64,000 nucleotides of DNA from Ophelia neglecta (taxonomy: Eukaryota): NCBI GenBank assembly GCA_965285935.1, contig OZ260661.1, positions 63,550,001 to 63,614,000 of the forward strand, given 5' to 3'. Within the stretch, counting starts at the first letter, position 1. Each line of letters starts with the position of its first letter. Of the stretch, positions 3,951 to 44,100 are shown piece after piece. Position numbers and translations under genes: made by a program. Below the pieces are notes generated by a model. That model was not told where the DNA came from. It saw only the letters and a list, made by a program, of their open reading frames with translations, and searched no databases.

Positions 3951-4410
3951 ATGGAAGAGAGAAAAGTGCGAAAATTGAGCAGGGATTGGCAGCATTTGGC
4001 ATACAACCCTAAACCACTGCAGAGACAGAGGGCCATGTCCCAAAATTCCATGCCTAGCCATGTTTCCCCTCCACAAAACCCAGCACTTAGCTCTTTTGAA
4101 AGTCAGCAAAGATTATCTTATGCTGGCACTGATGACATTGATAGAGCAAAAACTTTGCAGGCTCTCCAGAAACATTTCAAGATGATGCATGGGGCGAGTC
4201 TTGACAGTGCTGACCGTTCTGAATCTTCCCGCCCCTTCATGTATTCTAGAAGCAACAGTTCATTAGGCCTACAGGAGCAAGACTTGGAGCAAGAGGTGGT
4301 GACCAGTCACCAGGCTCAGCCCTCTCAACACATTGTTGAGTGGTACCAAAGCTTAAAAAAAGAAGTTGGAATAACGATACCCAAAGAAATTGAAACTATT
4401 ATTATTAGGA
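3951..4410 (+). CDS. SYNE1: Putative (alternative) first coding exon of nesprin, 153 aa
   Basis: aaacATGg start with upstream in-frame TGA at 3906. Donor A|GTGAGT at 4411 is phase 1, matching the acceptor at 6085. Confidence 0.7.
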
Positions 4411-5135: not shown

Positions 5136-8100
5136 CTACCTTTGAACTCTTCTGCTCAAATATACATGTATATGGACAATAAGTAATTTAGCAAACAATT
5201 GGATATCTTGAAGGGGGGTGAGGGGGGAGGGGCTGATGTATATTTTTGAAGAAGAAAATGCTTAGCTTGGCTTGTTCTTGATTTTCCCAATTGTGTCCAT
5301 CTGTGGTTTAGTTCACTCAAATGTACAATAAAGAGGGCAATGATTGAGGTTTATTTCATGAATTTGAAAAATATTCAAACTAGTCATATCATCATGTGCC
5401 TAAATGACCAGGCAGCAAAATTTATTTGTAGTTTTTCAGAGAGTTGAGGTTTTTCTATTTTAAAATGCTAAAAGTCTGAAGGTTAAGGCTTATCACATAT
5501 GTTATGGGCAATCTAAAATAATTCAGTATGATCATGCGTATCACATGGTGCCTTCGACATTGGTAGTAAGTTTAGTAAACTCATGATGCACATACTGTAT
5601 TTTCTCCTAACAAGATTCATCCATTCATCTGATGGTGATAGGCGGTATGAAGACATTTCTTAAATGCCATCAATCACATTAAGGATGAAATTGTAGTTGT
5701 CATTTAATCGTTATAAATAAACTAAAATGAACTACCAATATCATACACAGCATTGGATGAGTAATTATGGAGTAGAAATACTATAACTTCTCACTATCAT
5801 AATTATGCCATAATATTTTTTTTAGATGACTACATATTCTTAGTCACATTTGGAGATTTCAGGTTGAATTCCTAATGTACATGATCAATTTTCACTACTC
5901 AATATTTATTAAAAAACAATCGTAATAAAAATTTAGATTTTTTAGGTATGCACCCTAAAAAGGCTGTTTTATTAATGGAAGAGGTTAAATATTGTATTTT
6001 TATATTGTATGTTGTTTTTAATGATGATTAAACCATTAAATTAAAAACTCAATCAACTCAAAATTCATTGTTCGACTTTTTCAGATGAACAAGAAAGGGT
6101 GCAGAAGAAGACATTTACAAATTGGATCAATTCCTACCTCACAAGGGTAAATATTAACAGATTTATTTATTAAAATGTGCATTTAACCTTTATTTTGAAA
6201 TCATATACTAGCAGAATTTTTTTTCTTAAAGCATTTGTATGATTTGATATCGACTCCTGTTCATTTTGCCTGATAAGAAGGTGCAAAATAAATAAGACAT
6301 ATGAGTTGTAATGTGTAGTTGTACAAGTAACCTAGCAATAATTTATTTTCAGCATGACCCACCATTACGATGTGGGGACCTTTTTGAGGACATCAAAGAT
6401 GGTGCCAAACTCCTTGCCCTTCTTGAAGTATTGTCGGGAGAGTCACTGGTATGCATAAAATGAAGTGTTTTATTAACATTGAATTGTTTGCCCTTGTTCA
6501 CATTCGTATGGTGAAATATAGTACAAGTAGGTTCTGAACGTATAGTGGTATGTACTAGTAATATATTTTAAAAATATTAAGCCAGTAAATGGTCCTTCAA
6601 CTATACTGTGATGTTTTCTGTAAACAAGTTGGTTCTTTCCTATTTTGACAGCCAAAAGAAAAAGGTCCCCGGTTAAAGAGGCTTCACTTCATCAGTAACG
6701 TTACCACCGCTTTAAAATTTCTAGAAAACAGAAAAGTAAGTGAAATTTATCTGTTTTATTAAGTGGCTTGTCTTTCAGCACTAAACCCCTCAACTGAGAG
6801 ACAAGCAGTGTTGAGAAAGCACTGCTGACTCAACTATAGTCATTTTATAAGTTTTTGTAAATCTAAGTTGCCCCCTTCTACAGGTGAGAGGTGGGTGGCA
6901 GAGCTTTAAATCTTATAATTTGACAGGTAAATGCTATTATTTATAACCCAATTATCTCTCTCTGTATAACTCTATGGCCAAATGTAAAATCATCAGATGA
7001 TCACACTCACAAAAACAGCTTTTTCCTTTGAAATTACCTTCTTTTTAGCAGTTTTATGATTGATAACTCTGATTCCTTTGGAGAGAAAGGCAACATATTT
7101 ATTTCATTAGTTCCCAAATGGCAACAATCATTAGAATTCCTCTAAATGCCAATTCTCTTAATGAAAAACACAAATTCCAATCTGTTTTCTGGGTTTGATG
7201 TTCAGGCCAAAAGCAATGTTGTTCTGGGTAAGGATATCCCCATTCCTAACAGACAACAGGTTAAGATGGCCAAAAAATGAATACTTGACATACACACCAC
7301 ATTGTTTGAAGTAACATTTAAACCCAAGGAAGCTGGCCTAAAATGTACAAACTGTAATAATATGCATACTGCTGAACTAATACAGCATAGCTGGAATGAA
7401 TCATAATTTACTGCCACTTTATGATCAAATGGACTACGCATGAATTTGCTGTTTGCTAACATACAAAAGCTACAAAGCAACATAGCAAAAGCTACATAGC
7501 AATTCAAATAGCATTTTGAAATCCTATTAACTTTCTGAATGTACAATGTATTTACAAGTTTAAAAAGTAATAACTTACAAAGCTCACAAACACACCCTTG
7601 TTATGTGTTATTTGAAATAAGATACTAAAGAAAGTGCATATTCATTACAGTTTATCGGTAGCATTAATGAATGGAACTATGAACATTTTCACATTTGAGC
7701 CCCCCCCCCCCCCCCCCCCAGCTAAAGAAAAGTCAGCTTCAGTTAAATCTTAAATGGTCATTATTTGTGCACAGTTTAACAAAAAATGTAAAAAGTGTGC
7801 ATAAAATAACCCTGCTCTCTATGTAGGTAGTATGACATTAAACATCATAATACTACTAGGTACTCCAAGCATAAACTACTTGCCTGTGGCCCTGGTATTA
7901 AATCAGAACAGCATATTTGACCATTCAAGAAGCCAGTGTTCATTAGCAGTCTCAGTGGAAACATCTCAGGGAAACTCATTTTTTGATTTTTACAAATACC
8001 ACAGGAAATATTCAGCTACAATCTTTAGCTTGAATTTGTAAAGAAAGTCCACTTTTAAGTGATTGGTTTTGAATGACTCTTGGCCGAGGAACATGCCATT

Positions 8101-11100
8101 TTGAACCAGTGAGGCATGAAAATGAATATACTGTACCTGGTTGTTACCGATACTATGAGAATGCTGACAACTGAATATTGTCAATTTGGTGTTATTTTTT
8201 ATGAAAGGTACCACTTTCTATCACCCTATCAATGCTGACATTTGCCTGGGCAAACCCCATTTTACTTTGCTGTAATAATTCTCAGGGGAGAGTTCAATTA
8301 TTAATAGCAAAATGGGCGCACCTTGACCATAAAAACATAGGCATATGGGTCCTTTTGAGTGCTTGGTCACAAAATGGTTTAAATGATGGTTTAAAAATAA
8401 AGGTATTTTTTCATGCTGGCGATGAGTTCATTGCCTTTGGCTCAAAACTTGCTACTTTCCCCTTGCAAGTTCAAAGTTAATATTTTGTATGTTCCAATGC
8501 AGATATTATGATAGAGACAACAATTATCTGCAAAAGAAAATGTATATGAATATTACCATACAAGGATCACAGAAAGTTATATTGAAAACAATGCAGGTCA
8601 CTGAAGAAATTCTCTGTATAATACAATCAGCCTCCCACCCCACCCCCACCCCCATCCCCAGGATAATTCAGTTTCATCATATGTTGTTTAAATAGTGTTA
8701 CTCTTTAACACAGATATATATTTTGTTTGCAATTAAGGAATTGGTGTTACCATAGTTACTATTCCCCAATATATGTCATTTGGAAACAAATGAATTGTAT
8801 TTCCAAAGGCATGTCCTAATATTAGTTAAAGGGAAAAAAACTACTGGTAAATTTTCCTTGTATGTGTATGTGGCCATGCATCTATGTCCCCTTTAAGGAT
8901 ACAAATCGTGTACATATATCACTGTTAATTAAAAGTAAAAATTAACTTAGATATCAAATAGGAAATTTATATCTGGGGCAATTTATAATAGCATTTTGAT
9001 GTTTTTTCTGTTCTTTTTTCAGATAAAATTAGTCAACATCAATCCATCAGATGTAGTAGATGGAAAACCCTCCATAGTGCTGGGTCTAGTATGGACTATC
9101 ATTTTATATTTCCAAGTAAGTTTAAGCCAAATTAAAGCTTAATGTGTTGATATTTTGTAATATGAGTACTGGTGATACTTCAGTAACATTATATATGCTT
9201 AATTTCATTCATCGATTAAATAAGGCTACAGATATAAAGTAAAAATTTAGCTGTACCCATAAATCTTTCTGTTTTCTTAACATTTTGAAGGAAAAAACTG
9301 CTTTAAAAAGAAATGGCTTGCATGAAACTGTGATTAAAAATTGTGTATCAACTATGTTGTTTATTCTGACATAATGTGTACATATTCTCCACTATAGCAC
9401 AATTAACCATGATACTGACAGTATATAAATTTTCTTTGATTTAATTTAAGATTGAGGAATTTACCAAAACCCTGGCCCAGCAGGCTGCCTCCACACCATC
9501 CAGTAGTAACAGTAGTCTTGCCAGCGATGGTGCTTCAAGCGCCAAGCGGCCCCGACCTGGCCTGGAGAGATTCAAGAAAGCCGGCGCCAAGCAGGCCATG
9601 CTGCTGTGGGCCCAAAAAGCTGTCACCAAGTAAGTCAAACTCGAGTCTGTAATCATTCCTTATCTCATTATGGTGTTGGTCTGTGGTAGAAATCTGATAA
9701 TGTACTGTATGTGAAGGTAAAAGAATGTACTTAACCTGGTGTTGTAGTTAATTTTAAAATTGCAATATCTTCAAAATGCATGTCTAATACTGTAGGCACT
9801 TGTGTGATTCCTGTTAGTTAATGTATGGAGTTTCATTGGGGTCTTTTGTCATTATTGGAACATGTCAAAATTCTGCTGTAAAGGTGATCTTGTCAACTGA
9901 CCTTTAACCCTGTGGGATCACCAGATTATAGATCTCCAAGCAACATGCTCATAACTATGTGCTTCAGATAATAAAAACATGTGATATCATGTGAAAACGG
10001 TGGTTAGTTTGACCCATGCTGGCTTGTTGGCCATAATTGGACATATCGCTCCTATGTATTATCTCAGTTGCACACAGTGCACAGACTTACATCACCAGGA
10101 AGTGTCACCATGTTATCCCTACAGAGGAAAAGGTCTGACTAAATATTCATGTACGTCTACATCATTGATGATTGGTGGTTTAAAATAAATCTTTTTTATC
10201 CATAATCTAAGACCAGTTTTATCAAATGTTAGGCAAATGCCATGCAATTATCTAGTACAGTCTTGTCATGTACATGGATGTTTACATGGCAGCTCAATGG
10301 ATTATCATTTATTAAAGTTGTGTAATAAAAATTGAGTTACAGTCACTTGCATGCATAGTCACTAACCAGACATTTAATTTTACAGGTTTAAGGATGAGTA
10401 AGTTGGGTCACAATGTGTGGATGCTTCAATATATGCTCACTCACTCACTAACACTCTCAAACTAATTTCAATTGTTAGAAATAGATTACCGTAGGTTAGT
10501 TATAAAATGTAGGTCCCTGGCACAACATAGTTAAATGGTAATATGGCCATGTTTTATCAACCAAGCTTGGTGTAAGCATTTAAATAGATTCAGAAATACA
10601 TGTCACATAACTTTTCCATTTATCCCATAGCCTTTAAATGATTCATCCCTTTGCCAAGTCCCGTAGATAAAAGGTCCAAGATAGTATTAAGATCAACTCC
10701 TATCCAGGTGTACTGTAGGACAAATGATGTCCCAACGCTACCTGTAAATACACAGAACTCTGTGCCTTGCAGCAATTCCAATATTCTTGATGAATTGTAT
10801 GATACTTGGAACATACATGTAAGTGTATACATGGAAAATTTTTTGATGTTCATTGCAAAACAAATTCAAAGTTGCTGTGCCAAGAGGTTATAATAAAGCA
10901 AGTCTTTTGCAAGTGTGAAAGAGTATTAAGCTTGCTTGTAGAGTTTTTCTCTTGATGCGGGGCTTTCCTCAAATACATGTACATGTAAACAATTATTTTC
11001 CATGTAATGAGCTTGATGTTCCTGTCCTGGTGTGCGGTGTAAAATTTATATATACTATTGATATCAAATTGATGTTTCAGTGCGACGGATGAAAGCAATT

Positions 11101-14100: not shown

Positions 14101-17100
14101 GGGCTCGATTGAGACCTTGTTTTAGGATTTTGATCGGCACCATGTCATTGATAAAACTTGTTTGTTTGAGACCGTGAAAAGATAAGTTATTGTGATCTGC
14201 TTAGGCAGTTCCGGTATGGAGATTTGGTTATTTACTTGATTCATAGGTGAACCATTGAAATAAATAAAATGGCTTACATGGACTTACTCATAAGTTTGGA
14301 CAACTGAATGCTATTGATATTAGCTTTACCTGGATTTGGATCAAAGTCTTCGGTAGACTGGTTGGCTGAGCCTAGTGCAGGGGTGTTTGCGTGTGTGTAC
14401 ATGGCTGAATGTTGAATAGAGGTGCCGCCAATCAGCGCCAATCAGCTTCAGATCCCACCACCTTGTGCTCTGGCTCTGTCAGGGCATATACCACCGATCT
14501 GCATGATTGACCAATACATAATCAGATCTCCACAGTTTGGTTCACTTGGTGCTAAGCTGATATCTGAGCTAGCAGGGAGCCCAGTACTGGAACTGGCAGT
14601 CATTGTAATCTGGCGGTTTAATTCTGAACTTCATACGCATTCTTTCCCCAACGAATTTTCATGCTAACATCTGGATATGTTATGGTTACTGACACCCTTA
14701 TGAATATGACGCGGAAGAAGACGCCTAGACAATGATTTTTATGTCACAAGAATTATTGCCAATTTTCGATATGGATGAAGCAAACCGTGCTGTGTTGTGT
14801 TTTAGTCCTTCAGTTGACAACAGAATGGATATAGCTAGTTTACCAACTAAAGGAATTACTAATCATTGGACCATGAACAAGTTTCAGACAGAAATCATGG
14901 GCTAAGAGACACTGAACCAGCTTCACCGGCAGAATCTAGTGGCATAATTTGTGTTGGGCATTGATTCATAGTTTCTCTGACTGATTCTCCACTTGTGGCA
15001 TTGTGGAGAATCCAAATAAATTTTGACCTGGCTTGGTTTGGTGTGTCTTTAAACAGGAAAAAGTATTTTCTACCAATTCTTATTACCCCTATTACTGTCA
15101 TTACAATGAAACAAACATTTGTTACACTTATAAAGGATGCTGTTTAATTAATATAAATCACATATTTAACAGAATACTAGTATAATTATCAAGTGCAAGT
15201 CTATCCAATGTTAGAATGAAACATTATTGAGAGTCAATTTATAACATCAAGTCAATGTGGCATATGTCAAGAAATTGACCTCTTAATCTAATTAAAATGG
15301 CATCCAAAGAACCTAGGCCCAAGAGCCGCAGTGGCAAGAAAAAGTCTCCGTCCCCGGATTACGCTGCCATGTCTGAAACCTCAGGGTCATCAAGGTATTC
15401 AGAAAGCCCCAAAGTGAAAAAGAAAAAAGTGCGAAGCCCTGCTCTAGATGTGACGCCCAGCTCCGACTCGGTCTCCCCATTGTCCAGCCCCAAAGTGAAA
15501 AGAAAAAGCAAAAGCAAGGACAGGAGTGCAACTGCTTCCCCATCCATTAAGTCAGATCGCGAGGGAAGCCCAAGTAGGGGGAGGGCAGAGTCAGTGGCTA
15601 CAACTCGAGTGTCAAGTGCCAGCAAGTCTAATCCCAATAAGAAAACCATGCTCAAATACATGATACACGAAGTCCGGGAGCTGAAAAAACAACTAGATCC
15701 AAATGCTCCTGACATTCACGTAAGACGTCGTAAAGGGGGTACTCACTCGCCCTCCAGAGAATCCCAAGCAGCAGGCTCAGTGCTTGTCCTCACTGAGTCT
15801 GATATTGAAGAGCAAGAACACAAACATGAAAAAGTGCATGAAAAAACTAGGGAAGTGATAAAAACTGAAGATGGTGAGAGAATAATTGAGAAAACCTACT
15901 CCAAGAGGGCTGAGAGCCATATATTGCGGAGATCCCCAGGTCCTCAAGAGGGAAGCCATAGTCCATTGTCTAGACGAAGAATGTTTCCTGCTGCTTCAAT
16001 GGAGGAGACTGGGGATACGGGGACGTCCCCTGTTGAAGTGCAGCTTCTTAATCAAACGTTTCCTCCCACTCGGCTGGATCACAGAGGCAAGACCCCTCCT
16101 GGAAGAGAAAGGCTTAACAGAACTACAGCAGGCATATTAAGAACTCCTTTGCCGATTGTGCAAATCTCCCATGAAGGCTCAGACTACTCACCACAGTATC
16201 TAATTGATGCTCTGAAAAAGTATGTGTTTCTTCATACATTAGTTTCAGTTTCAATTTTTAGCATGATGGGTACTAATCGTAATCAGATTCGATAGAACTT
16301 GAAAGCTATAAATGACATATTTGATTAAGCCAAAATGAATGGTAATTTTCCACTCGGTTCTTTTTTCCCTGACTCCACAGTAGGGAAGGGCCATTCTTCA
16401 GTTATGTATTGATGTAAATGACCCCATGGGGGTGTCTTTTACAACCATACAAAGGTACTAAATTTAAATATACAACAATTGATCAGGTCATCTGACTTTA
16501 CTTTTTTAGCTCCAATTTCAGCACATGTTTGATAGTAAGCTGGTAGCAGGCATTCGACTGTTCAATTCAACCCACCCTTGCACTGTATCATGTTTACATC
16601 TAAATCCTTAAACATTGGTACAGTTCTTCTTGACTAGGGGTGAAATATATTGATTATATATTATATTTCAAAGTCAAATAGGTTGATCTCTTAGCCAACA
16701 TTTTCCTTTCTACTGGCATTTGGCTTGTTAAAGCTGCTGCAAAATGAGTTTATGGAGGATTTATTTTTTTGGCTTGTCAGTAAGCTTTTTATGGTATTAA
16801 AGTTGAAACACATTCTTTACAATAAATGATTAAACACATTCAAGAAAATGATGGACTACAAGGTTTTGAGAGTTGTTGTTGCAAGTTATGAGTTATTTAT
16901 GCTGAATTTAGAATTGTATATGTTCATGCTAAAACTTGCAAGTCAATATTTTTAATGAATATGGTGATTTTGTTTTTAAACAGAGAGGGAAGCAGGGGAT
17001 TGTGTGTGATAATATATTGTACAATATTAAATAAGCTTCAAAGCTTTTAGAGAAGTCCCCTTGCTGACAGTCATACAGGAATGTATCAGAGAATACCTTG

Positions 17101-20100
17101 ATCAGCATGTCTTGCTAAATCAACATCAACCAATGGTAGCTGTGTGACATAGTCACCCTGGATCTACACGATGTGAACAGATCTTTATACCTAAGTTTTC
17201 ATATCTTAGTGTTGTTTGTACATTTAGAAAAGTTTCCTTTTTTGATACTGATCGATAATAGACTTCTCATCATACATGTGCTACCATGTCAAAATGCTAA
17301 TGGATCTGCAATCGAACATAATTTTGTGAATTGTTCGTTTTGATATAATGCACCTGTTACCTTTTTATCCAGGATATTTACTTATTGTTTGTCTAAAGGG
17401 ATCAAAGAATTGAACATACAAGGTTGGCTGTATAATATATATGTTCATGTACAGTCTCAATGGCCCACTCCAAAAGATGATTGCCTATAATGAAGCAGTT
17501 AAAAAGAAATAAATCCCTTTTGTTTAGTGAATTCGATGGCTTGATAACAGTAAATGCACTTTGATTTATTCTTTGCAATAAAACAAACAATATTTTTATA
17601 GGCTACTTTTGGTCTCTACCTTCATATTATTTTTACATACGCAAATCCAATTGAATGGTTACAAAAGTTCTAGATACAAGTTCAAACATGAGAATCTCTT
17701 ATCATAGAATAGTTTTATTCATTCAAGACCATGAACTGCATTATAAATACCATGGATCCATTTCAGTTAGATTCAGTTTTATTCATATTTTGTATACATG
17801 TATCTATCTAAGCCTAAGAAACTAAACTCCTAGTAAAACCTTAAGTTTACCAAAAGATAATTAACAAAGGTTTATTATGTATATTCATCTATGATATTTT
17901 TCTGGTGTTATGTTTTATTAGATCTGCCACTTTCAAGGAGTCACTTTTAAGAAACAATGTCCACAAACAAAAATGAGAATCCGCTGTTTTTGCTTACAGA
18001 CGCTTTGGCATAGAAGTAAAAGATTTTGGGAGCAGTTGGCGAGATGGCTACGCCTTCAATGCAATGATCCATAACATTCGTCCAGACCTCATAGACATGG
18101 CTGCTCTACCACAAAACCCAAACAGAACCAATTTGGAGAATGCCTTTTCCACTGCTGAGGATCACCTCGGCATTCCAAGACTGCTTGATCCAGAAGGTGG
18201 GACAGATGAATCCTTAATCCAACTTGATTTGAATTTCAATATTTAATCAAGCTTAATTCAGGCTAAATTCATTTAATTCAGATAAAGTTTATTATACAAG
18301 ATTTGCTCTTCCCTATAAATGCTTGGTGCTTGCTTTCAGATTTGGATGTAGCCAAGCCAGATGAAAAGTCCGTTATGACTTATGTGGCCCAGTTCCTAGA
18401 AAAGTTTCCCGACCCTGATGCTGATTTTCCAGATACCAAAGGTGGCTCCAAGGTAGAGTGTGATATTACCATTGATTGTATTTACCAAATCATTTTATTA
18501 TGGTTTTAGTAGATGAGATTGACTTAAAATTTATCTTTTCAAATTGATTTTGAAGAATTAAATGCTAAATCAGACATTTTGTTTTTATTTGAAAAGTTTT
18601 AGGATATTCATAGTTCCAATATACTATGTTTGCTTTGCCTTTCCCTTGAAAATGTTAAATTTTATGGTTTGTCTGTTTGGTAGCTGTCCATTTTTATCTA
18701 TTTTCCCCACAACTCTTAAATATCATTTGTCTGTACAGCCTGCTATACTTGTAAGCAGTAAATGGGATGATGAACTACAGATTGGAGGGGGGAACAATTT
18801 AAGTGTTGGACAACCTTCTTCATTTTTACAAGCACCAGATGCTAAATTTACACAAGTTGGGAAAAAGAATCCCAAGCTGCAGCGCAACCTGTTAGAGGGT
18901 GGTCATGAGCTGATAGCCTTTCACAGTCCAACCCTGGAGCGTAGACAGTTTAGAACAGATCTAAGGGCAGCACTGAGTGCCGGAGCCTCCCCACTAGGCT
19001 CTCCACAAGGCACACCCCCAGTACAGAGGAGAATGTTACCTTCTTCAGACGAGTTCAGGTCCAGTATGGACAGCCTGAGCTCAGCTCCAGATGAATTATT
19101 GAGCTCACTCGACCCTGTTGAAGCCGCCAGACTTCGAAGGATGGAAAGAAGGCGCCATGAAAGGTTTCATCTGACTCCCTCAACAGAAGACATTCACCTG
19201 CAAAAAGCAGCATCAAAAAGCCATGAGTCACAACACATTGAAGGACATAGGCACAGGAGACAAAGGACCAGACAGCTTCTGGTTCCTGGAGAGGAGGAAC
19301 AAAGAAAGTTAAGTTTACCCCCAGAACTTGATACTGTCTCTCGTGGATCTGAATCTCAAAAGCCAGAAAGGCCATTGTCTCCTGAGGAACCAACAGAAGT
19401 GGGGGGAGCCAGACCCAAATCAAAGAGACACAGGAGGGTAAGAAGGCGATCTGACCAACACAAGGGAGAACCAGAAATGGACTGTTCCACACCTGATAGA
19501 TATACAGTTCATAAGAACATTGGCCAATTGATTCCTGGATCTATTGAACATTCAGAGCCTAAACTAACTGAATCCTCTCAATTAAAAGATACTATAATAA
19601 CTTCAGAACAATCAGTTTGGGTAGAACATTCCGAATGGCAGTTGACAAAGTCAACACCACAGAAGATAACTGTAAGTGCACTACAAAGTATGAAACTGAG
19701 AAAATATCCATCACTGGAAGATTTTCAGTCTTTGAAGGAGAAAGCAGAGTTGGCACCCAAAGGTAGCCTTCAGGCCTTGTCTCTTGCGATATTTGAATTA
19801 AACAACCTGAAACCAGATAGGACCAAAGCACCTGAGCAGCCAAAAGAACCTAGTTGTCAATTAAGGCCCTCAAACTATGACTCTTCTAATAAAGTAACTA
19901 CACAATTATATGTTGGACCTTTAGACGCATCAAGCTGGAGATTGTATCCTACCATGGCAGATATTCAGTCTTTGAAAGAAAAAGCTCAAATTGCCCCTGC
20001 TGACAGTCTCCAGTCATTGGCCCTGACTGTTGTAGAACTGCCATCAGAGGGTTATTTGAAAAGTAAGTCAAGTGAAGAACTGTTTCTAGAGCAGCCAGGT

Positions 20101-23100
20101 CAAAAAAGACCAACAGAGACTGTAGTAGTTAAAGGAACAACACTGCAAAAGGAGGAATCTACATGTACTGGTAAAATGGATGCTGAAGCAACACAAGCTG
20201 AAAACTTAACAGTAGATGTTCTTCTAGAACCTGCTTCAAGTCTAAAGAAAGATATTGATATGACAGCTAAAGTAGATTGTGATATAAAATCTGGAAAGCT
20301 AACTCAAGAAGCCCCTGATGACAGGTTCCAGTCAGTTCCTGGACTGGATCTGCCAGCAGATGGTAATCTTGATGAGAGTTATAAAACTGAGTCTCTGATC
20401 TTAGAGCAGCTGGCTCAAAATAGACCATCAAGTCCATCTGAGAATATAATTCCAAAAGCACACATGACAGAGGATACCAGCAACAATGGTGATTCTGTAC
20501 ACCAGGCAGAGGATGTGGTAGAGGGTGAGAATAAATTAATCTCTCTGAATACAGAAAAGGATGATGATGTGACCTTGAAAGATGTGGATGATGCAGAATC
20601 TCTGCAGAATGCTCAAGATGCTCCTGGTGAAGAACTCCAGTCTTTTGACCTTGTTGTAGGAGAACTGCCAGGTGAGGTTGATCTCAACAGAAGTGATATT
20701 ACTGAGGAACAGCTGGAGGAAAATAAAATGCCCGAGTATTCAGACATTAATGGTAAAAAGTCACTGTTGGAAAGGGATACATGCAAAACTGATATTTCTG
20801 GAAATCAGGGGGAACAGACAAAGATGGATGTTGATACAGGGAGTTTTGTTACTTTGGAGAAGGATGCTGACTTAGCATCTAGACATGTGGATCAAAGTAA
20901 CCAGGCCATGAAAGAGAGTACCCAACCCGAGCCTGAGCAGACACAGGGCATTAAGGAGGAACTCCCTACCGAGGCAGTTTTAACCAAGGGCAAAACTGAG
21001 GAAAATCTCTCAATCGAAGGGGGTTTAACCAAGAGCAGTGGTATTGAAGAATTCCTTCAACAGGAAACGCTTCCAAATCTGCCAACAAAACCATCTGAAG
21101 TTAGGAGAGCAGAAGTTCACAATGTGGAGGGTACAGACAAAGCTGACAAATCAGGATATGAGGCTGATACAGTTGCTGAAAGAAAGGGAGAAGCTCAAAC
21201 TATTGAGAGAGGTAAGGAACCAGATATTTTAAGCATCCAAGACAGAGAAACTTTGGACAGTTCTGTATTGATAAAAGTGCCATCACTGGATTCTGGCGTG
21301 GAAACAGAACAAGACCAAGGCCATGTTTGTGTAGAGAAGCCTGAGGTCAGTCAGCCTGAGGACCATGTATCCAGTGAGTTTGAGTTTCTGCGGATTGCTG
21401 ATGATGATGAGGTGGCTGTAGACTCTGGTAGTGAGGAGAGGAGAGCAAACCTGGGTTACCAAGTAATCCAGACGCCAGAGAGACACAAGGTTCTTCCACT
21501 TCTCTTATTGAGCTTGTTGCATCCAGTTAGTGGAATGCCCCTCTCCCATTGGACTAACATCCAGCCTAGCTATATTAAGGCAACCAGCATTATAGCTGTA
21601 CTACATTAGAATGTCTTGAAATGTACTGCAAGATATAACCATCTTTCTGTGATCTTGTACTGTTACATTAGTACCATACATGTCCACCCTATCATCCTTG
21701 GTTTAATATGTGTTCTTCTTCCATTTTTGAGTGAGTTTTCTGAATTTCCCTGTAATTATTACTCAAAGGAACTGATCTTTATTGAGTAATATAACATTTT
21801 ATTGCAGGTCCCCTGAGTGTTTCTTATTTTATTATGTTGTTAATTAATTCTTTTGATTCTTTGCATTGGAATTTCTCCTGACCATTGCATGATATTTGAC
21901 AACATCATTAATGGTGAGACTTCCTTTTGAGATTGTGTGTGCAGTGTATTATTGTTTCCTATTTAAGACTCATTCTCGTCTGTCCTGTCTGATTTAGTCT
22001 CATCTGTCCTGTCTGATTTAATCGTGCTTCTCAATTTCAAAAAAGTTGGATAAAAGCCCTTTTTAGAATAAAGGTCACCTATTAGGTACCTATTTGCAGC
22101 CATGATTAATGATTGTTGTAGATGTACATGTACTGTATATTAAGCTTATAACGATTGGCTAAGTGATTACTTTTAAAAGAAATGTTTTCTGCCATCCAAA
22201 CTTTGCACTTGCTCTGTTGTAAAAGGACTAAATTATGTAAACATGTTCCTTTCTTCCACACAGTGTATATATTGGTTTTCCCAGGGAGCTCCTTGTACAG
22301 TGACACATTATGTTAGGTCCCTGTTGTCTTCATGTTTGCTGAATCAATATCAAACCCGCAACCGTCAGCTTCCCTAGCAAGCTCCATTTCTCTGATCTGA
22401 TTATTAACACTCAGACATTAGACCTCTGCATCAATATTTTATATTAGTGATTTATTGTTCACAAATATAATATTTGACATTGCCAGAATATTTGTAAATA
22501 GCAGATTACCACTGAAGTGTTGTTTGTTACTAATATTTAAGGAATGCCATCTTTAATAGATAGATAACAAAAGTTGGTTAAAGCATGAATGAAATAACTT
22601 TACTGTTATAGAAGTTAATTGAAAACAAAAAAAATTGTCAGAATTAGTCAATAAACATTTAGTACTTATTTTACATTTTCAAAACCATTTAATTAAAGTA
22701 TACTGGTGATACTAAATTATGCATATTTCAGTTGATCACATTGACTTAGTTAATTGGTAAATTGTCAGCTTTACAAACCTAGTTTGTTTGTTTACAGCTT
22801 GTTGTGCAGGTGGATGCAGCACGTCGGGAAGCTCTGAAGGAACAAAAGGAGTATGATGAACTTATTATGTGGCTAGACCAAGCAGACAACTTACTGAAGA
22901 TAGTAGACAGCCCTGTCCATGACAGGCAAGAAGAGTATAAGGTTAGCTGACCACTTGAATTATTATTTGTTTGTTGTGCATATGTACATGAATTCTTCAT
23001 TTTGCTACAATGGCCATATAAATGTTTTTTTTTATAGAACAACTAATGGCTGTATATAAGGTCAAGCATGGGGTGGAGGGCTATAGAGATTCTAGAAAAT

Positions 23101-26100
23101 AAATGTTAGTTTTCTAATTTGGCTATAACCATTTGGTATTGTAAAGGCTAAAAAAATCATGTTTTTCTTTTAATCAGTACAGGGGTTCATGCAATGTAGG
23201 GCCTCCCCTAAATCTAAGGAAACATGGCCCTACATTGCAGGTGGCCCTCCATGGTAGGGACTTAAAGCCCTTCATCAAAGGGACTACTGTACTGGGTTTA
23301 AATATTGTGACAACAAACACTGTTTTGGCCAACAATAGTTTTATATATTAAATTGAAGTGTTAATCAGCAACTAAAGTTTTTATTCTTATTTTCTCTGAG
23401 TTTATATTTGACAGGGTTTTGGGTCCAGACTGAGGATGTGGGGTGGGGGGGGGGGGGGCATTCAAATCTATAAATCTATATTCGTTTTATTTGGGCCTAG
23501 TTGGTGAGTATTACATAGTATTAATAATAGGCCATGGTACAGTGGTCCTAGTTAATGGCCAGTCTGTCTCATTGTAGTGTACGTTTTAAGTGTTTGTATA
23601 TAGTGAAGGATGAATGCTAGGTGATTTATACCCTTCTCCCACGTCAAACAAATTCAGTGATCTGATAATAGAGCTTGTGAGCTAGCCAAGTGAAGTCCTC
23701 TTGCTAACACATCAAATATCACTCACTCCCTGGCCTTGCTCCAAATCCCACCAATGGTGTTCAAATGTTCTAAGCCAATGTAATAACTGTACTGTGTGCT
23801 GGAACTATCTGGGAGTCTGTGGGCTGAGCGGCCAGTAAACAAACCCCACCCAACATTTGGCTGTCAGTCTTACCTGACATAGCCAGAAGGCAGGCACAGC
23901 TTGATCAGAACTCCAGCCTGAAAAAATAGGTGAAACTGATTGAGAATCAGACCTTGACATTCTCACTGAATCCTACAACCTTTACCCAGCTCAATCAGAC
24001 TGTTTGTTGTTTTGATGAGCAGCAACAGTGGTATATTTATGGCAGCAAGTACATGAGCATATTTAGTCTGAAGAAAATGGTTGCCACCAGATTGTAAAAA
24101 CATATTATTATTATTATTATTGATATTAATATCAATATTTATATTTGTAGTTGTCTAATCTACCCTGGTTTCCCATGAATCCCCACCATGGTTATGAACA
24201 AAATTTTCTTATTTGATAAAAAGAGCTGGTGACAAAAAATGACACTTTTCCGGGGGAGCCAGGATAGACTGAACTGTATCAGCAGCAGAAGATTGTATTA
24301 TGCCTCATTACAGATACATGTAATGATATGCAGGTGTTGGCCTGTCAGGTATGGCACAGTGCTAGCAGGGTATCCCTGGCCACCTGGCAGCCAATGTCAA
24401 CATCCACTCAGCCCTCTGGACACTGGCCAGGCCTATTGATACCAGCCAGATGTTTGTCCAGTGAATGCACCTAATCAATTAAGTGGTAGTAAGACTTGTT
24501 GGTTTATTGCTGACAAATAGCCTGTTAGATATTTTACGCTTGTCAAGATCAAGACTTCCTAGTGATTCTAGCTTACATATATGTAGTTCTCCTCTTATTA
24601 ATGGGACACAGAAATCAATTAGTTCTGGTCCAGAGGCAGACACATACTAAGAGACAGGGTACAGGTACTAGTGTTTACTAATTTCCAGTCAATGTAACTT
24701 ACCCCCAATGAAGGAAGTCACCCTACCCTGAGGGGTCACCTACCCTGTGGTCTGACCAGCACACAAGACATGTCTGTCAGCTTCAACAATATTATTATTT
24801 ACCTGACCCTTAAACTCATTTGCAGCACCTTGAAGTGTACCAACTGAGCTGGACTTCCAATTATTTCACTTCCTATCTTGATCTAGATTCAAAATTGTTT
24901 AAAGAAGGCTCACTACATTTGAACTGACCAACCAGTTAAGGTTGGAGCTTGGTTCAGAGCAGTATGTTTAATTTTCACCTCTTCATGGATAATGTAGTGG
25001 TATAAAATGCCATTCAATAATTGCCATGGATATAATGTACAAGAGGGCTGAATGAATTGCAAATGGATTTTTATTCAGCAGGTAATTTTTTAAGGGATAC
25101 CGAGAGCATTTCAGGACATTTATGTGAGTGCTAATGAAGTGGATATTGGAATTAGCAGCTGGTGCTAATTGTTCTTAATCTATTGATGAATTTCTATAGT
25201 TTCAATGGAGAGAAAAGAAGGGAATGAATGTTGTTTTACTTGGTAGTTAGCTTTGGATCCTGCTACATTCTCAGAGTTGAGTGGCCTGGGTGTTAACTTT
25301 TCCTGTTTCAGGTTTCTACCATGATTAAGATTAAGAGAGCTATTTATTTTATATAATAGTCAACCCAATTTTAAATTATGGTTCTGTCAATTGTGACCTT
25401 CATACATTTATTTCTCATGCCTCATGGAGTATGTAAAGGTAGTCAGCCTTCCTCCCTGGAAAGGAGAAAGTCAGTTGCAAGTTTGTTGCAAAAATCAAAA
25501 TCAAGGAAATGTGATAAACCTCACACATGTACAAGTAAATGTGACTACCAATTTGATGTGACTGTTTTGCCATTTCCACAGCAATATTTGGCATTCCAAG
25601 AAGACTTACGATTAAGGTGTGATGTTTATGAGCGCTTCCGTATCAAAGGAGAGTCCAAGACTTTTTTAGTGATAACCGAGGACAAGTGGACCTATCTTCA
25701 GCAGCGATGGAGCTATGTCAGTCAGCAGACACGAGTCTGGCAGTGGAAATTGGACAGCAATCTTCCAGGCCGACTTGGCCAGATTGGCGACTGGCTCTAT
25801 CGGGCTGAGGAGATGATCAAAACCGAGATACACTATGCAGACAAGCATGAAGATACAGTGGAAATCATTCAAACTAAACTTGAAGACATTGGAGTAAGTT
25901 CTAGTTTTTATAATACATATTTATATATTTTGTCCACTGCTGCATCATTTATTTGCTAACTATTGACAAACAGATCCCTGGAGGGGTGGCTTTCATTTTA
26001 ACTTGTCCTAATTTAGACTTTCTCAATTGTTATAGGAATTCTTCAAAGATCTGGAAGGTACCAACCAGGAGTTTCTCCAAATCAAGCAGGCTGGTACTTA

Positions 26101-41100: not shown

Positions 41101-44100
41101 ACAGGTTGTCTTAATATAGAGGTGGTCTTTAAGCCTGGTTTCTCTGTATAATGTTCTATATCTATAACAGTTTAATTATCTATTTGATACTACAAACTGT
41201 GTTACCCCAGAATTTAAGTATTCAATATCTATTTAGCCTCCTTTTTCACCTCATGACAACCTGCAGTTTGCAATTTTGGTCATTAGTGAAATTTTCTTTT
41301 GAAAATTTAATTAAAATTTACATTAACGTATTAACACCTAATCCAGGATCATGTCAAGGAGTGTGAAGCCTATGTGACCCACAACCAGTTGTACAGCGAC
41401 ACTCTGATCCAGACCCGAGAGTGGCTACAAGGTTTAAACGACAAGCTGGATGTCTGCATGGAGCCAGCTGCTGATAAACACAGTGTCCAGAACAAGCTAG
41501 ACAGACTACAGGCAAGAGACAATCTTGATGAGTATATCTAGACAATGGGTAGACTATGTTACCAAATCTTCTCATGTGTTTATTGCCAAGACAGAGGGTC
41601 AAGTAAAGCAAATGAATATATTTGAAAAAAAGATTGATATAATGGTAAAAATGTAGGCTTACAATAATGAATTTGAATAGCTAGTATTATATAAGGAATG
41701 TAATACAGTTACTGTAGGTTTTGCTGCAGTCAATGTGAATAAGGGCTAATTGTGTTTTCACTATAAAACTTATTTTGCTATGAATGTCTTCTAAACAAAT
41801 CATAGATATTAAAGATTTAAATGTGAGCTATCTAGAAAAAAAAGACATCAAAATATCATGTATAATAACACTTAATCTGATTAGTAGAAAACATTAAGTG
41901 TTTTTTACTGTATTTAGGAATTACTGCCCACCAAGCAGGAGGGAGAGTCTCGTATTGCCATGGTAAAGAGCCAGTCTGATAGGGTCCTGCCTCAGACTGC
42001 TCCCACAGGCCAGCAGACGATCAGACGAGAGCTAGAATCTCTCAATATTGACTGGGCTCGCTACACCTCCAAGCTGGCAGACACCAAGACCGGGCTGGAG
42101 GAGACGCGTAAAGCCTGGGAGGACTTTGACGGGCTCTATGACAAGCTTGGCAAATGGATGAGAGAGATGGAAGGCCAGATCAAAGACTACGAGCTCAAGT
42201 CCACTCTCCAGGACAAGCAACAGCAGGTCAACAGGTTCAAGGTGGGTGCCAACTTACCATACAGGTGTTTTGTGGACAATACCTACCCTGTGTATGTTTA
42301 CACAACATTGAACCTTGAAGTTCACATATAAACTTGATGCCTAGGAAGTCTTAACAGATTGCATCACTAACATTAGACATGCATGAAAACATGCCAGTGA
42401 AAATTACCATTGTTATACTTCATTTTGTAGGATTATTATTTATGCTTATTTATTATAGAAATTATTAATTGTTTATTGTGGCTTTTAAATTATCACTAGT
42501 GTAGAATTAAGTTTTTTTTAATAATGTAGTTAAAGTTGCCCACTTAGTTAGAATTGCCCCTTTCATTTATAGACCATAGTCTTTTCACTGCATTAATGCC
42601 TGTAAACCAAGTCCTCTCACCCTTTGATATGATATTCCATTACAGTATTCTACCAATCCTTCCAATGTTATGGTACAATATTAATGCCATTATCTGTGAC
42701 ACTTTTACCTAGGAAATAGAGCATGAGATTCGTTCCAAGCAGACAGAGTTCAAATCATTAAGCGTCAAGACTGAGCCTGTCTCTAGTGGGCTGGGTTCCC
42801 CTAGACCTAACCCACCCCAATCCAGAGCTTTAAGCAGTGTCCTGGCCTATAGGGTTGGTTTGCTGCCACCAAGCTTTGTTCCTGTCTAGAACTACTTAGT
42901 ATAAGAACTAGCCTCCTTGACTTCTAACCACCCATACTTTAAGCATAAATCCCAAATAAAATAATGTGTAAATATAAAAAAGTGCACAATCCGTATATTG
43001 AAACCCACTTGGTTAATTCACACTGTACATAAAATAAAATATCATTCTGTTTTTATTTAATTTTTCTCACTATTAATCAACATTAAGAGCTTGTTTAATC
43101 ATCATCAGGGTATCTATACACTTTCTTGATGATGCTGCAACTGAAGAAGATCCTCGTTTTTACTTGAAATTAACACCTTAAATCATAGTACCCCCGTATA
43201 AAAATGACTGTCATGTAAAACATGTCTTCTGTATCACTGCTCAGATGTTTCATGGAGTTTCTATTCTCCACAGCATTAAGACAGGGTACAATGTTTTTCC
43301 ATGCTCCCTGTGAATACTCCCCGCGAATGGCCTAGCGGACATGATGTCACAGTAACTTGGGTTGGTTTCTTCAAGCTATAAGAACATCAATTATGTCACA
43401 ATGAACAACATCATGATTGCGGGGAGCATTTAAGGGGAGCTTTGAAAAGAATTGATCCCTGCCTTAATACCCTTGTGTTGCATTTTGCAAAACTTTGATA
43501 ACTTATAGAGAAAACAGTCTAACTTGAAAACCAACGCTCTTCCAAACTGTGTTAACTTAGTTTAATGTGATGAGGTTTGTGTGTGTTTCAGTTAGCATTT
43601 GTGTAGACTAATGACTGTGAAATTATTATTGCTTTTGATAAATTTCTTCTCAGGATAATTTATCATCATTCAGGTGCTTTTTTTGCTTAAAGACTGTAAA
43701 TGTTTTGTTTCAGAATTTCCCTACATTCTGTCCAAAACAGTTTTAGTATTAAAATGTACAAAAGGAAGCATAGAGGTCAAATTATACTGTTATTTATTTC
43801 AAAAGATATTTTATAGCAAACTAGAAAATACAACACGATTGTTATGAACAGACAGTTTATTATATAAAGGCCGGCATTTTATCCATGTACTGCTATCTTT
43901 AGGTAAAATTTATCCAATATTTCTAGGCCCAGCAGCAGGATATAGCCAGCCGTCAGCTCGACTTCGAAACAATCAGCGTCAAGGCTCAGAATCTAGAGCT
44001 GGGGGAGACCAAAATGGCTGTATACACCACCCAACTCAACCACAAATATCAGACTCTGAAGAGTAATGTCAAGGTCATTATTTTACCTGTTTACTTTATA

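Follow-up and report, generated by a model that had tools for sequence, protein, structure and literature searches.

The rod of spectrin repeats in a nesprin transmits force from actin to the nucleus. Here we describe a giant exon of a gene of Ophelia neglecta that has the characters of a nesprin, found in a stretch of 64,000 nucleotides (contig OZ260661.1 of assembly GCA_965285935.1, positions 63,550,001 to 63,614,000 of the forward strand; this whole stretch is called the window, and coordinates refer to it unless another locus is named). The exon lies between the actin-binding pair of CH domains and the rod, and it is probably a regulated cassette.

The closest described systems are giant nesprin-1 and nesprin-2 and Msp300, which, like the present gene, combine tandem CH domains, a spectrin rod and a KASH domain, and for which two papers report many alternative first exons, cassettes and 3′ ends (PMC3388047, PMC11230431). 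Unlike the window exon, the cassettes tabulated there for human nesprin-1 have 7-47 residues, and none in those tables is placed between CH2 and the first repeat (PMC3388047, PMC11230431); large isoforms of Msp300 built from repeats are described elsewhere in that gene (PMC11230431). The products p32CH-Nesp2 and p56CH-Nesp1 lack KASH and end by intron read-through close behind the CH domains, as would a terminal form of the window gene considered below; they are proteins of 32-56 kDa free of any giant disordered insert and are backed by cDNA (PMC3388047), whereas the terminal form of the window gene is a putative one. In calmin (CLMN), too, a CH pair of nesprin type stands before a long region predicted to be disordered, and the protein has 1,002 residues against 1,384 in that terminal form; it differs in being a separate vertebrate gene whose C-terminal transmembrane domain is needed for tethering to the endoplasmic reticulum, while in the window gene a conserved membrane segment is absent and the rod and KASH follow (PMC12416146). 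This likeness is one of architecture. The neurospecific exons of giant ankyrin-B and ankyrin-G are, like the window exon, single, very large internal exons, mostly disordered, with short conserved motifs and repeats; they belong to a different family, and neuron-specific inclusion and microtubule binding have been shown for them (PMC7401806). The exon described here is real and conserved, and it is of a kind already known from these ankyrins; a giant exon at the CH2-rod junction is apparently undescribed in the literature searched, which lacked most subscription papers.

The gene is, by its domains, of nesprin-1/Msp300 type, because a CH2 match (Pfam CH), matches to spectrin repeats and to Spectrin_SYNE1, and a KASH exon downstream on the same strand occur together. 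At the N-terminal end tandem CH domains are present, with the Pfam match on exon 18000-18196 and the CH1 exons in frame; two rod exons score above the cut-off for PF00435 and PF25034 (Spectrin_SYNE1); and the KASH match (PF10541, 93 bits, C1:63662575) is found 48.6 kb past the end of the window, and the DNA in between contains rod-like exons. CH and KASH are presumably joined in one transcript. The exons at the junction are as follows.

18000..18196, plus strand: CH2 exon a (Pfam CH, E 1.1e-13)
18340..18452, plus strand: CH2 exon b with a phase-0 donor (splice consensus, frame)
18739..21489, plus strand: giant exon of 917 codons, phase 0 at both ends, predicted to be mostly disordered (open frame, splice consensus, AlphaFold2)
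22798..22941, plus strand: first rod exon, with a strong acceptor (11.8 bits) homologous to that of its counterpart in locus L036

The initial annotation of this DNA, made from the letters, had placed 917 open non-spectrin codons at 18739-21489, followed by 39 more to a TAG, an AATAAA at 22067 and an acceptor at 22798, and all these coordinates were recovered. The exon runs from the acceptor tacag|CCT at 18739 to the donor AAG|GTTCTT after 21489, giving 2751 nt, more than any of the other 50 modelled exons of the window (maximum 1923). At the intronic stop rate, 917 open codons would arise by chance with a probability of about 1e-27.5. Joins for skipping, inclusion, the terminal form and the alternative start all translate free of internal stops, and codon use in the exon is coding-like (mean +0.20). 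Among the indels listed from contigs of the DNA runs, both of those within the exon keep the frame (-15 and +6), and nine of the ten outside it break the frame; the tenth falls within a run of G. An open frame devoid of function, a mobile-element relic or an assembly artefact might be suspected, since no Pfam family matches the exon at E<=1 and almost no homologs are found in databases; against this, the exon is single copy in the genome, independent contigs from three DNA runs (one sample) span it, and homologs occur at the same site. Such an origin is already largely refuted, and we give it next to no weight.

These homologs are the main evidence that the exon is a conserved coding frame. 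A scan with a CH2 signature yielded 58 loci, and a tree of 50 of the 59 rows (rows with fewer than 80 aligned residues were dropped; unrooted) groups the window with L036, L044, L052 and L059 (support 0.92). The labels spiralian, crustacean-like, insect-like and fish that we attach to loci are presumptive. L036 repeats the whole layout, with a hinge exon, an alternative first exon, two CH2 exons, an open exon and a homologous first rod exon; its open exon has 587 codons (8474-10234), between CH2b and that rod exon. In L049 a counterpart of 783 codons directly follows CH2b, as does that of L044, which is incomplete at the contig end. A search of 1.84 billion protein representatives matched P0002 (579 residues, 38% identity to the giant exon over 442 columns) and P0003, both of which carry the block at residues 40-135 described below. 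When a hidden Markov model of this block was built from the window, P0002 and P0003 only, the frames of L044, L036 and L049 ranked first among 10,663 (E 2.3e-5, 4.2e-5 and 1.5e-3; next frame 0.56), and HHalign aligned the block with L036 at E 5.3e-5.

The ends of the exon are conserved as well. In the window, L036 and L049 it starts with CAG|CCN (Pro) and ends with AAG|GT in phase 0, the donors being equally weak (5.3, 5.4 and 4.9 bits, respectively), and the full-length relatives end at the matching Lys|Val (PERAK|V in P0002 vs PERHK|V). Likeness between the window and P0002 reaches the donor: none of 1000 shuffles does as well for the C-terminal region, and 10 of 1000 do for the last 23 residues. 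Past the donor it stops (286 of 1000). These comparisons support conservation as a coding frame at the same site in relatives, and the matching end speaks for inclusion by way of the 21490 donor. Among 7,994 near-length candidate proteins, P0002 was the sole match to the giant exon, as it was for a 6-sequence profile; none was found among 7,972 longer candidates of up to 4,780 residues, a range that leaves out full-length nesprins, and an exon-alignment search of metagenome contigs returned nothing. No match of the window's intron DNA to L036 or L049 was detected, and none of the RBFOX and QKI-type intronic motifs searched for is common to all three loci.

In composition, the earlier description of an Arg/Ser/Pro-rich first third and an acidic remainder holds: residues 1-305 have R 10%, S 12% and P 8% with a nearly neutral net charge (+4), and residues 306-917 have a net charge of -58. 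The disorder prediction that it called for was run with AlphaFold2, giving a predicted local distance difference test (pLDDT) score below 50 for 876 of 956 residues, where the shallow alignment of six sequences may also have lowered confidence; helices are predicted at 126-142, 326-355 and 406-418. FoldIndex was dropped as disorder evidence since it did not separate the giant exon (0.79) from a rod exon (0.73). The following elements were distinguished within the exon.

18856..19143, plus strand: conserved Ser-Pro/Arg block, residues 40-135, with the core P-x-x-x-R ... LIA[FH]HSP ... R and the predicted helix 126-142 at its end
19402..19455, plus strand: basic patch, residues 222-239, common to P0002 and including a strong in-frame GT at 19438
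19705..19800, plus strand: first 32-residue repeat, residues 323-354, common to P0002; two predicted helices
19945..20040, plus strand: second 32-residue repeat, residues 403-434, helix predicted; degenerate half copies near residues 525 and 628
21289..21306, plus strand: DSGVET, identical in P0002 and absent from L036 and L049

All relatives have the Ser-Pro/Arg block, including its LIA[FH]HSP, in common, and it is a short motif that belongs to no described family. DSGVET fits the pattern DSGxx[ST], which we take to be that of a beta-TrCP phosphodegron, and a motif scan found no SxIP match in the giant exon of the window. The term flexible spacer, used in the initial annotation, undersells an exon that contains short motifs under conservation and a pair of repeats predicted to be helical.

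As to its use, we consider that the giant exon is likely a regulated cassette, spliced 18452>18739 and 21489>22798. Scored with a matrix built from the gene's own sites (in bits; 50 acceptors and 49 donors for comparison), its acceptor has 5.6 bits, with 10 of the 50 no stronger, and its donor 5.3 bits, with 6 of the 49 no stronger, in keeping with the weak donor suspected at the outset, and the next acceptor is strong (11.8 bits) while both sites of the giant exon are weak. Skipping is plausible, both sites being in the weaker fifth of the gene's sites and a direct CH2-rod junction being found in most other loci. Among 35 loci in which CH2b and a rod exon downstream of it are both present, 27 lack any open frame longer than 107 codons between the two, one has a giant exon of the present type, six have a crustacean-type frame treated below and one an unrelated frame of 195 codons; the 27 include L052 and L059 of the window's own tree group, and the fish nesprin-1-like and insect-like loci fetched also lack a long frame between CH2b and rod. 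Skipping would therefore give a usual nesprin, as in the related pair L052 and L059. That the phase-0 flanks let skipping keep the frame is borne out by a clean translation of the join, but this symmetry says little about skipping because 41 of the 50 other modelled exons also have lengths divisible by three. Transcription and inclusion of the exon, its skipping in other tissues and its function we infer.

The same evidence can be read as a constitutive internal exon of every CH2-containing full-length nesprin of the lineage, an explanation that we regard as unlikely. The conserved ends and motifs would suit it, as would the short upstream intron (286 nt between 18452 and 18739; 237 nt in L036) and the equally weak donors (6 of 49) of other exons of the gene that look constitutive. 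It agrees less well with a weak donor kept in three lineages, with the absence of the exon from L052 and L059, and with the tissue specificity of giant disordered exons in ankyrins (PMC7401806).

A different outcome concerns the region 3′ of the donor, which contains the following features.

21490..21609, plus strand: read-through tail of 39 codons to the TAG at 21607-21609, behind a weak donor; probably intron
22067..22072, plus strand: AATAAA, at chance frequency

If the exon were mainly an alternative terminal exon, the stop TAG at 21609 and intronic polyadenylation would give a 1384-residue protein with two CH domains and a disordered region, devoid of rod and KASH. A precedent exists in human nesprins, which make retained-intron ends, including p32CH, stopping before the first spectrin repeat (PMC3388047). 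The four tails compared are of 39 (window), about 21, 25 and 19 codons, all at least 19, vs a gene mean of 13.8. About 350 nt 3′ of the donor are weakly alike between L036 and L049 (1 of 500 shuffles), the sole such case among 10 intron comparisons, and this likeness fits a 3′ untranslated region and an intronic splicing element equally. Most of the remaining evidence speaks against a terminal exon. The AATAAA is present at 22067 as the initial annotation had it, but it is at chance level, since this hexamer occurs at 1.31 per kb in the gene's introns, 13 of 14 long introns contain one, and the probability of one within 463 nt of the stop is 0.45. Codon use of the tail is intron-like (-0.32, a score reached by 66 of 160 open frames in introns); these intron statistics for AATAAA, tails and codon use come from a first exon model with several mis-called exons and a few rod exons inside its "introns". 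The tails are unalike between relatives (286, 551 and 931 of 1000 shuffles), and conservation ends at AAG|GT. Because the best 19-residue hydropathies of the four tails are 1.57 (window, borderline), 0.82, 0.48 and 1.67, with other intron read-throughs reaching 1.41, there is no conserved membrane anchor. A weak test points the same way, in that none of the 7,997 candidates scored is a protein of 106-1673 residues that combines CH domains with the giant exon. Mainly terminal use seems quite improbable to us, and a minor terminal isoform made in addition to the cassette forms is possible, though doubtful. The resemblance to calmin proposed earlier survives in that a long disordered region comes directly behind the CH pair, and fails in the conserved transmembrane anchor and in the rod and KASH of the same gene; a terminal, calmin-like product thus has little support. 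In a second haplotype, 21568-21623 differs at five places around the end of the tail and the stop.

Several points weigh against a cassette spliced at the 21490 donor. Weakness of the sites is no proof of skipping, and at 8.1 bits the acceptor of L036 is average (27 of 50 are no stronger). A read-through of at least 39 codons, found at 1 of 38 other phase-0 donors, is of unusual length. The basic patch, the two 32-residue repeats and DSGVET are shared with P0002 only; because this is so of the repeats and DSGVET, function may differ by lineage. The nesprin link of P0002 and P0003 is presumed from protein sequence. Finally, five in-frame GT sites within the exon, when rescored, beat the 21490 donor. 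Three of them, at 19438, 20272 and 21346 (8.8, 7.1 and 7.8 bits vs 5.3), might be used to make mostly shorter forms of the exon, and the join from 19437 is in frame. Yet the Val codon giving the GT at 19438 is Ile in P0002, protein conservation continues to residue 917, and codon use past 19438 remains coding-like (+0.22); we judge this explanation to be very unlikely.

If the exon is the cassette that we favor, its inclusion in some isoforms or tissues would put about 900 predicted-disordered, motif-bearing residues between the CH pair and the rod. The contour per disordered residue is 0.36-0.38 nm, so that the insert would span about 330-350 nm. The long acidic part would most likely serve as a length-tolerant tether, loosening the mechanical coupling of actin to the rod and with it the transfer of force to the KASH anchor, and the Ser-Pro/Arg block near the 5′ end would likely be a docking site for a hypothetical partner, controlled by proline-directed phosphorylation. 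Skipping would restore the standard CH2-to-rod junction.

Upstream of CH2, the following exons were modelled.

3951..4410, plus strand: candidate first coding exon with ATG at 3951, in frame; its phase-1 donor into CH1 is weak (4.9 bits)
6085..9629, plus strand: CH1 and hinge exons 6085-6146, 6353-6448, 6652-6735, 9023-9115 and 9451-9629, read in frame
15297..16219, plus strand: candidate alternative first exon of 307 codons with a phase-2 donor into CH2; a homologous exon occupies the same place in L036

The name CH1 for the exons in 6085-9629 is provisional, given by likeness to nesprin sequence. The alternative first exon is a candidate source of isoforms that would contain CH2 and lack CH1. 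Both it and L036 6999-7690 carry KK.MLKY.IHEVRE.K.QLDPN in the hinge-CH2 intron; it also includes a stretch of 10 residues resembling RRM[FLY]P of the giant exon, and an 11-nt insertion polymorphism lies 3′ of its donor. In and after the first rod exon, a second in-frame AG at 22810 (12 nt inside, 6.0 bits) is a possible tandem acceptor, and the following intron has a short, very-high-copy repeat in inverted arrangement at 23190-23266 (DNA-contig depth about 30,000). An apparent GC donor (CAG|GCAAG) ends a rod exon at 41511-41513. The rod of the same gene, about 11-16 kb past the window end, holds a second giant open frame of 1546 codons (L064 1233-5870) with an Arg/Ser/Pro-rich start, three SxIP-type matches (SRIP, SKIP, SLIP) and no Pfam match, and a Thr/Ser-rich non-spectrin frame of 457 codons lies between rod exons at L065 7027-8397. 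Two more KASH-encoding genes are present in the genome (C2:69968131 and C1:86202774).

A different conserved block was observed after CH2b in ten crustacean-like loci (L009, L012, L013, L026, L028, L030, L032, L038, L056 and L057). It reads HEEA.F..KV..WQ..IN.E.GT and was modelled from five of the ten loci; its frames occupy the same intron as the giant exon and are flanked in phase 0. Behind an AG they open with RR[RS]S[VI]P, and most run for about 135-195 codons to a GT in phase 0; three loci scanned gave no Pfam match. This block and that of the window are superficially alike in RR..L[IV]AH, but no homology between them was detected (HHalign probability 0.2%), and convergence is therefore the simpler reading. 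A broader scheme would make the CH2-rod junction a recurrent insertion point, at which separate protostome lineages (the window clade and the crustacean-like animals) each acquired, on their own, large symmetric exons that carry motifs and have leaky donors, and by which nesprin is switched between a rod-coupled, a spacer-decoupled and a rod-less form. Vertebrate calmin would then be such a rod-less form that gene fission has fixed, and the source of its disordered region would be an ancient nesprin exon instead of unrelated sequence next to the gene. We offer this scheme as a speculation with a low chance of being right.

The unrelated crustacean-like exon candidate at the same site is a testable case of convergence, and RNA data are abundant for crustacean-like animals. 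The partner of the Ser-Pro/Arg block can be sought directly. Vertebrate and insect nesprins appear to lack an insert at the CH2-rod site, and if the giant exon is optional, 600-900 disordered residues behind the actin-binding domain would alter actin-nucleus coupling by splicing alone.

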